From Shigella phage sb2: DNA of 64,000 bases. Below the pieces are notes generated by a model. The model worked only from the letters and a program-made list of their open reading frames with translations. It was not told where the DNA came from and ran no database searches. This document shows, in pieces, positions 3,231 to 3,288 of the stretch. The first letter of the stretch is position 1, and every line of letters begins with the position of its first letter. The position numbers and the translations under genes were made by a program. The stretch lies in sequence record PQ666540; one strand, given 5' to 3'.

Positions 3231-3258
3231 TTTCTGTTCCTCCGTAGTTGATAGGGTA

Positions 3259-3288
3259 ATAATACCACAGAGGAACAGTCTTGTAAAC
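3259..3288 (-). promoter_or_regulatory. T4-type early promoter
   Basis: Minus strand GTTTAC (3283-3288), 18-nt spacer, TGgTATTAT (3259-3267). Confidence 0.65.

Follow-up and report, generated by a model that had tools for sequence, protein, structure and literature searches.

In bacteriophage T4, hairpins that bury the ribosome-binding site on long upstream transcripts gate the translation of e, soc, 49, 25/26, I-TevI/II/III and segB, and the same gating is described for Aeh1 mobE (PMC2988022). The known cases are "all late genes", served by a late promoter of the TATAAATA type (PMC2988022); this promoter lies inside the hairpin and gives rise to translatable transcripts that lack the 5' arm.

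Another described arrangement is the PeSL (PMC2839356, PMC4122927), in which an early promoter with an AT-rich upstream stretch is combined with a stem-loop, the Shine-Dalgarno (SD) sequence and ATG standing at its 3' end. PeSLs are intergenic, placed between a stop codon and the SD/ATG, repeated within a genome, present in the hyperplastic ndd region and exchanged between copies. The stems may precede the promoter, lie within it or follow it closely; they are read as terminators or attenuators, and the descriptions do not include pairing with the SD. In Escherichia coli, sigma-54 promoters carry anti-SD "insulators" (Levy et al., bioRxiv 10.1101/086108), CT-rich motifs of 3-5 nt that lie within 25 bp of the SD, pair with it and silence read-through translation. 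Early SDs of T4 are also the targets of RegB, which cuts a GGAG followed by a purine- and A-rich tract and is blocked by secondary structure (PMC1702504, PMC3014915).

Here, we analysed a locus of Shigella phage sb2 (PQ666540), within a window consisting of the whole 64,000-nucleotide stretch of DNA under study. A sequence-only reading had proposed that an early promoter is embedded there in an inverted repeat able to sequester the SD of the gene starting at 3230. The locus resembles T4 late-gene gating in its predicted SD-burying hairpin on upstream transcripts and in the promoter between the arms, whose start is placed by geometry. It differs in lacking both the late promoter and the late gene, no TATAAATA being found between the arms: the internal promoter is of the sigma-70 early type, its own -35/-10 spacer serves as the 5' arm, and the genes that would be gated (ndd.4, nrdC.8, motB.2 and modB) are early. 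The timing logic would thus be reversed, translation being limited to the early burst rather than postponed to late infection.

The locus matches PeSLs in composition, in its intergenic placement in the ndd region, in repetition within the genome and in signs of exchange between copies. Its helix, however, joins the spacer to the SD, a position outside the five described subclasses, and lacks a U-tract. As in the sigma-54 insulators, a CT-rich promoter motif would silence read-through translation by pairing with the SD; unlike them, the CCUC of ndd.4 lies about 30 nt upstream of the SD within a 15-bp helix, the promoter is of the sigma-70 type, and the predicted start between the arms would provide an explicit release mechanism. 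The site also has the early GGAG and the ensuing purine- and A-rich tract of RegB targets, with three mismatches to their 11-nt consensus. No earlier description of SD gating by an early promoter was found in the literature searched, a scope outside which the older subscription literature falls.

Genomic context

Bases 2500-4500 of the window share 90-99% identity with about 500 Tequatrovirus (T4-like) genomes. Gene names were assigned by comparison with T4 (AF158101) and phage KNP5, and the neighbourhood comprises:

5842-8019, minus strand: rIIA
4892-5830, minus strand: rIIB
3811-4368, minus strand: denB
3474-3737, minus strand: an 87-aa ORF between denB and ndd.6, with its own early-type promoter (3793)
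between the 87-aa ORF and ndd.5, minus strand: ndd.6
3296-3394, minus strand: ndd.5 homologue, the ORF upstream of the hairpin (T4 ndd.5 stands at the matching place in L002)
3117-3230, minus strand: ndd.4 homologue, the gene whose translation would be gated
after ndd.4 in the gene order, minus strand: ndd

The hairpin site is the 65-nt region between ndd.5 and ndd.4, which reads AAAAAAGTTGTTTACAAGACTGTTCCTCTGTGGTATTATTACCCTATCAACTACGGAGGAACAGAAAATG on the minus strand. The TAA stop of the ndd.5 homologue (3298-3296) is separated by 17 nt from the start of the helix, so that a terminating ribosome should not reach or open it. The ndd.4 homologue encodes a 37-aa hydrophobic peptide (MKKIVKAIWNVVIILVVLSIFPIVLMIDVLNTYFGFM); in T4 omics data its RNA falls in the early class and the protein was not detected (PMC9697503 supplement).

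The comparison with T4 also brought to light differences in the sequence and in the annotation of this region. T4 retains only the 3' end of the 87-aa ORF found here at 3474-3737, which indicates a deletion in T4. The GenBank start of T4 ndd.4 is an ATG located 15 nt upstream, inside the 3' arm of the hairpin (cuAUGgagg; L002 1736-1738, L010 712), where this phage (3243-3245) and most relatives have ACG. Conservation points instead to the ATG at 3230, which has GGAGG 6 nt before it, and the GenBank start is probably wrong; the JS98 annotation of ndd.4 (MEMIMKN...) has the same problem.

The early promoter and the hairpin

The promoter elements and the two arms of the hairpin are arranged as follows:

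3282-3295, minus strand: A-rich upstream stretch (AAAAAGTTG) and -35 element GTTTACA, with the hexamer TTTACA at 3287-3282
3264-3278, minus strand: 5' arm, CUGUUCCUCUGUGGU, inside the 17-nt spacer
3267-3266, minus strand: TG of the extended -10
3259-3264, minus strand: -10 hexamer TATTAT, all but its first base in the 15-nt loop (3263-3249)
3252, minus strand: predicted +1, an A, seventh base after the -10 and within the loop, placed from promoter geometry
3234-3248, minus strand: 3' arm, ACUACGGAGGAACAG, including the SD GGAGG at 3243-3239

With its A-rich upstream stretch, GTTTAC, 17-nt spacer, TGn and TATTAT, the promoter is of the consensus T4 early type and fits the published UP/-35/TGn/-10 description (PMC2988021). 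It is also the best sigma-70 match within 2000-6000 (10/12 plus TG). Since the predicted +1 at 3252 lies in the loop, the promoter's own transcripts should lack the entire 5' arm. The literature searched yielded no genome-wide map of T4 transcription start sites.

The inverted repeat had been described as two 9-bp arms flanking the -10, and these are found exactly where they were placed on the plus strand (CTGTTCCTC at 3234-3242 and GAGGAACAG at 3270-3278), with TATTAT (3264-3259) between them on the minus strand. The assignment of the arms holds as well: on the minus transcript the downstream one carries the GGAGG of the gene at 3230, and the upstream one begins at 3278, in the spacer between the -35 (3287-3282) and the -10. 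Only their extent had been understated, as in RNA 3278-3264 pairs with 3248-3234 without interruption to give a 15-bp helix, with two G-U pairs and a 15-nt loop. The 5' arm contains the anti-SD CCUC and overlaps both the TG and the first base of the -10; at the other side, the helix ends 3 nt before the ndd.4 AUG.

The minus-strand (sense) RNA folds at -23.2 kcal/mol (z = -6.13), a stability equalled by none of 200 shuffles, and none of 2000 shuffles restricted to the spacer reached it. Along the real minus strand, three 50-nt windows fold at -23 kcal/mol or below, the ndd.4 hairpin being among them; four shuffles of the whole window contained no 50-nt window at -23 kcal/mol, their minimum being -22.4. 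The antisense strand of the hairpin reaches only -16.1 kcal/mol (z = -2.4). On the complementary strand the G-U pairs become A-C mismatches, which argues that the structure belongs to the sense transcript and not to a DNA cruciform. Perfect 9-bp inverted repeats with loops of 10-40 nt number 37 in the 64-kb window, against 12-29 in ten dinucleotide shuffles, and the 9-bp repeat taken alone was rejected as a significant feature, not being above chance relative to shuffles.

Intrinsic terminators require a GC-rich hairpin directly followed by a U-tract. The ndd.4 helix is instead followed by AAAAUGAAAAAG, which argues against an intrinsic terminator, and the terminator scan made no terminator-like call at the hairpin on either strand; on the plus strand, a T-run begins 13 nt after the stem. 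A search of Rfam 15 returned no match at or above the gathering score, the best overlapping one being potC (20.5 bits vs 44, E = 0.38).

Predicted accessibility of the Shine-Dalgarno sequence

Folding was compared between read-through RNAs and RNA initiated at the ndd.4 promoter, the two 5' ends whose comparison the sequence-only reading had called for. On read-through RNAs, with 5' ends from 3280 to 3430, the predicted probability that the SD is unpaired is 0.000-0.002. On RNA beginning at the predicted start 3252, it rises to 0.84 (0.71-0.94 per base). Folding thus predicts a closed SD on read-through RNA and an open one on promoter-initiated RNA, and the proposed sequestration is supported to that extent.

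Read-through RNA could arise from at least one nearby source:

3765-3793, minus strand: nearest upstream early-type promoter (TTTACA, 17 nt, TACTAT)

No terminator-like site was found on the minus strand between this promoter at 3793 and the hairpin. The rIIB middle promoters (PMC2988021) lie further upstream of ndd.4.

Conservation across genera

The ndd.4 homologues of four genera were compared. In all four, a spacer arm pairs with GGAG, more weakly in the Kanagawavirus types, and the arm sequences differ:

Tequatrovirus: CUGUUCCUCYGUGGU with ACUAYGGAGGAACAG
Gaprivervirus (VR7, P479): CAUCUCCGGUGGUUG with CAACUACUGGAGAUG
Dhakavirus (JS98, MX01, C6 and others): CAUCUCCAUUAG with CUAAUGGAGAUG
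Kanagawavirus (CIP9): ACAUCCAUU with AAUGGAGGUG

Pairing of the GGAG core extends to all Tequatro-, Gapriver- and Dhakavirus sequences compared, and sequestration of the SD is complete in about 25 distinct sequences from these genera. Kanagawavirus-type phages show partial sequestration (0.28-0.49), and a single contig, L037, shows none. The 3' arm always lies over GGAG in the genera compared, and the place of the 5' arm in the spacer varies (4-18, -1 to 13/16 and -6 to 6).

Because the 5' arm shifts within the spacer, a sequence alignment leaves the arms out of register. Column-wise covariation on a MAFFT alignment was hence dropped, as the promoter elements align and the 5' arms fall in different columns. 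We used instead a register anchored on the SD, in which the alignment is fitted to each sequence's own fold. With rows that follow their own folds in this way, 88.7% of the cells pair, compared with 72.4% in shuffles (0/500), and eight of the 12 pairs have changed on both sides. Slid registers of the same alignment give 36-60% pairing.

Within Tequatrovirus, the arms vary by GC/GU exchanges only, plus a broken terminal pair. Six within-genus substitutions are wobble-compatible and two to three break pairs at helix ends; these are too few to serve as proof, chance alone being expected to make about 57% of transitions tolerable, and they are not significant alone. The differences between genera may reflect swaps of whole cassettes rather than stepwise compensatory mutation.

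The arms of motB.2 and nrdC.8 likewise change between genera with the SD still buried; at motB.2, Tequatrovirus has CUUCCUCGG... and Dhakavirus CUUCUCCUCAUG with CAUGAGGAGAA, the SD being buried in both. JS98 has one 5' arm common to ndd.4 and nrdC.8, and Tequatroviruses likewise have a common arm of their own, which suggests that the cassettes evolve in concert within each genome. In phage G8 (L007, about 2631, minus strand), ndd.4 has kept its arms and carries an nrdC.8-type loop (TACTATACAACTATC), a combination suggestive of gene conversion between the cassettes of these two genes.

Recurrence at other early promoters

Nineteen credible early promoters that immediately precede a gene start were catalogued in the 64-kb window. 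A buried SD on read-through RNA combined with an open SD on the promoter's own transcript is predicted at four of them, namely ndd.4 and the following three:

54565-54624, minus strand: cassette copy at the nrdC.8 homologue (start 54567), near-identical to the ndd.4 cassette
13419-13461, minus strand: motB.2 early promoter (start 13411), alike in architecture but with arms of unrelated sequence
18598-18643, minus strand: modB early promoter (start 18606), same logic

The nrdC.8 arms (54615-54601 and 54585-54571) are identical in sequence to those of ndd.4. At modB, the 5' arm is made of the -10 plus the discriminator, and the 3' arm covers both the SD and the AUG. The predicted probability of an unpaired SD is 0.00 on read-through RNA for all three, versus 0.78 (nrdC.8), 0.91 (motB.2) and 0.90 (modB) on their own transcripts. 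When the 117 predicted minus-strand gene starts are ranked by how deeply the SD is buried, ndd.4 and these three, all directly behind early promoters, fall in the top five, and all four genes are early-class in T4 omics data (PMC9697503 supplement). The T4 copy at nrdC.8 has its two outermost pairs broken (CCGUUCC...GGAACAC).

Duplexes between a spacer and an initiation region average -8.9 kcal/mol for cognate combinations vs -7.1 for non-cognate ones (permutation p = 0.0046). Of the 19 promoters, only those of ndd.4, nrdC.8, motB.2 and modB have a strong cognate duplex, and we therefore rejected the notion that all T4 early promoters share it. The hairpin over the gene 49 SD (47300-47356), which served as a positive control, was recovered by the scan with probabilities of 0.00 vs 0.55; it is conserved here and has a late-promoter-like TAATAAATA inside. 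The soc gene was discarded as a control, as no homologue is present at the T4 position and the T4 soc hairpin covers the AUG and not the SD.

The stability scan turned up several hairpins on the minus strand whose loop contains an early -10. Those at dmd (24235-24293), motB (12289-12362) and mobD.2a (59083-59140) fold at -19 to -23 kcal/mol, with the -10 as loop and the SD unpaired. Promoter-embedded hairpins may thus serve some other or further purpose, and the three that spare the SD are the chief reservation about an exclusively translational interpretation.

Further structures were noted in the window. The imm.1 promoter (29699-29762) has in its spacer a relative of the ndd.4 5' arm (CTGTTCTTCCATGG) followed by a different leader (…CAACCAATACAAATTTGGAGAATAAAATG), an "orphan" arm such as recombination within the loop would leave behind; in the residual fold, GGAG is still buried (0.00 vs 0.46). 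The promoters of rIIA.1 (8233-8287), 3737-3793 and 51596-51653 have in common a small spacer hairpin, ACCACAAGGA(C)TGTGGT, to which the extended -10 contributes its TGTGG. At gene 55, which encodes the late sigma factor (start 42004; about 41990-42100), the SD is fully paired (P = 0.001). Its partner, a CCUCU located about 60 nt upstream, adjoins a MotA-box-like TGCTTTA; TATTAT and TATAAT lie in between, and the same gating logic may operate there at a middle promoter. GC-rich tetraloop hairpins, with loops such as UUCG and UCGG, occur at 1-50, 20766-20815, 26011-26030, 29846-29895 and 56081-56130; T-runs follow four of the five (not 26011-26030) and several can be read on both strands. These are classic T4-type intrinsic terminators.

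Discussion

The predicted folds support reading the ndd.4 hairpin as a variant of T4 late-gene gating, here at an early promoter, and we think that the element is probably a translational insulator built into that promoter. Transcripts entering from the promoter at 3793 or from those of the rIIB region would carry both arms. On leaving RNA polymerase, the 3' arm would pair with the spacer-encoded 5' arm, and the resulting 15-bp, -23 kcal/mol helix would bury the ndd.4 GGAGG and block 30S subunits. Transcription from the promoter itself would begin in the loop at about 3252 and yield RNA with the 3' arm alone and a free SD. The ndd.4 gene would then be translated essentially from its own promoter only, that is, while early promoters fire, and genes further downstream would be translatable on all transcripts. 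MS2 work by de Smit and van Duin reportedly showed that initiation is already limited by hairpins of much lower stability than -23 kcal/mol. The turnover of the arms in four genera, the double-sided changes in eight of 12 pairs and the recurrence at three other promoters argue that the arrangement is selected and not accidental.

The transcription start, the in vivo fold, and both the magnitude and the purpose of any effect on translation are our inferences. The purpose might be to confine synthesis to the early burst, or to fix dosage whatever the upstream transcription; as the nearest upstream promoter is itself early, a temporal benefit is not obvious.

The described PeSLs offer another explanation, in which the module is a transcription attenuator or terminator as well as a patch of homology for recombination, and SD burial is a side effect of where the arms happen to be placed. 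[quoted passage not shown] The ndd.4/.5 cassette is moreover a published example of PeSL-mediated exchange between T4 and PST (PMC4122927, Fig. 6A), and its duplication at nrdC.8, the nrdC.8-type loop in G8, the 5' arm that JS98 uses at both genes and the imm.1 arm retained next to a foreign leader all agree with such exchange. A terminator, however, is hard to reconcile with AAAAUGAAAAAG in place of a U-tract and with the lack of a terminator-like call on either strand. None of the five stem positions in the PeSL papers runs from the spacer to the SD, and the T4/PST stems were placed upstream of the promoter. In addition, the 3' arm tracks GGAG while the 5' arm shifts in the spacer, which is expected if the SD is the target and is left unexplained if any stem suffices. 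We thus consider the explanation as a whole unlikely: its recombination part is supported, and compatible with a translational insulator, whereas judging from sequence its terminator part is not favoured.

The hairpin could also act on RNA stability or processing, as a 3' barrier, as a stabilizing 5' stem-loop, or as a shield that protects GGAG from RegB on long transcripts. RNase E prefers AU-rich single-stranded sites, which the AU-rich stretch just upstream (UUUUUAAAAAAG) resembles, and the strong promoter hairpins of dmd, motB and mobD.2a, which exclude the SD, imply that some of these structures need a non-translational rationale. Sixteen T4 intergenic GGAG motifs in stable structures resist RegB, T4 nrdC.8 is "moderately" cut, and motB.2, with GGAU, is cut (PMC1702504, PMC3014915). 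The ndd.4 site, GGAGGAACAGA, nevertheless departs from the RegB consensus GGAGRAYARAA (PMC1702504) at positions 7, 8 and 10, and in the predicted folds it is single-stranded only on the promoter's own transcripts. A stability hairpin need not include the SD, yet the GGAG core is paired in all Tequatro-, Gapriver- and Dhakavirus sequences, and protection from RegB would save a message that is still untranslatable at ndd.4; we regard a role of this kind as quite improbable. Still harder to credit, and in our view very improbable, is the absence of any function at the RNA level, with a DNA cruciform or protein site, or the fortuitous meeting of a CU-rich spacer with a purine-rich SD, spread by cassette duplication. 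Perfect 9-bp inverted repeats are indeed common in the window, a CU-rich spacer can form a fairly good duplex with an SD region that is not its own (for imm.1, the best of the duplexes with the initiation regions of the other 18 promoters has -21.5 kcal/mol), and the ndd.4 and nrdC.8 copies are not independent. Such an origin is disfavoured by the spacer shuffles, by the much better folding of the sense strand, which is due to G-U pairs, and by the arm turnover: arms that differ between genera and genes with pairing kept argue against both a sequence-specific protein site and chance.

Beyond ndd.4, the reading as a translational insulator may extend to a subset of T4-type early promoters as self-insulating cassettes, with ndd.4, nrdC.8, motB.2 and modB translated from their own promoters' transcripts only. 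We put this generalization forward tentatively, as a possibility rather less than even. If it is true, the immediate-early proteins concerned, which include the ADP-ribosyltransferase ModB and small membrane peptides, would be made only in the first minutes despite continued read-through. A cassette would keep its insulation when copied or swapped between loci, as both arms travel together. The stem-loops of PeSL cassettes could then be viewed in another way, some of them being translational insulators and not terminators. Synthetic biology would gain a compact part of roughly 60 bp, a strong promoter whose gene is not translated from any transcript that begins upstream.

T4 is the classic model of temporal gene control, and the rapid fall of its early protein synthesis is incompletely understood (PMC3014915). 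Self-insulating cassettes would add a post-transcriptional component to this shut-off, and promoter-coupled translation would explain how early proteins are kept on a short leash despite dense co-directional genes and much read-through.
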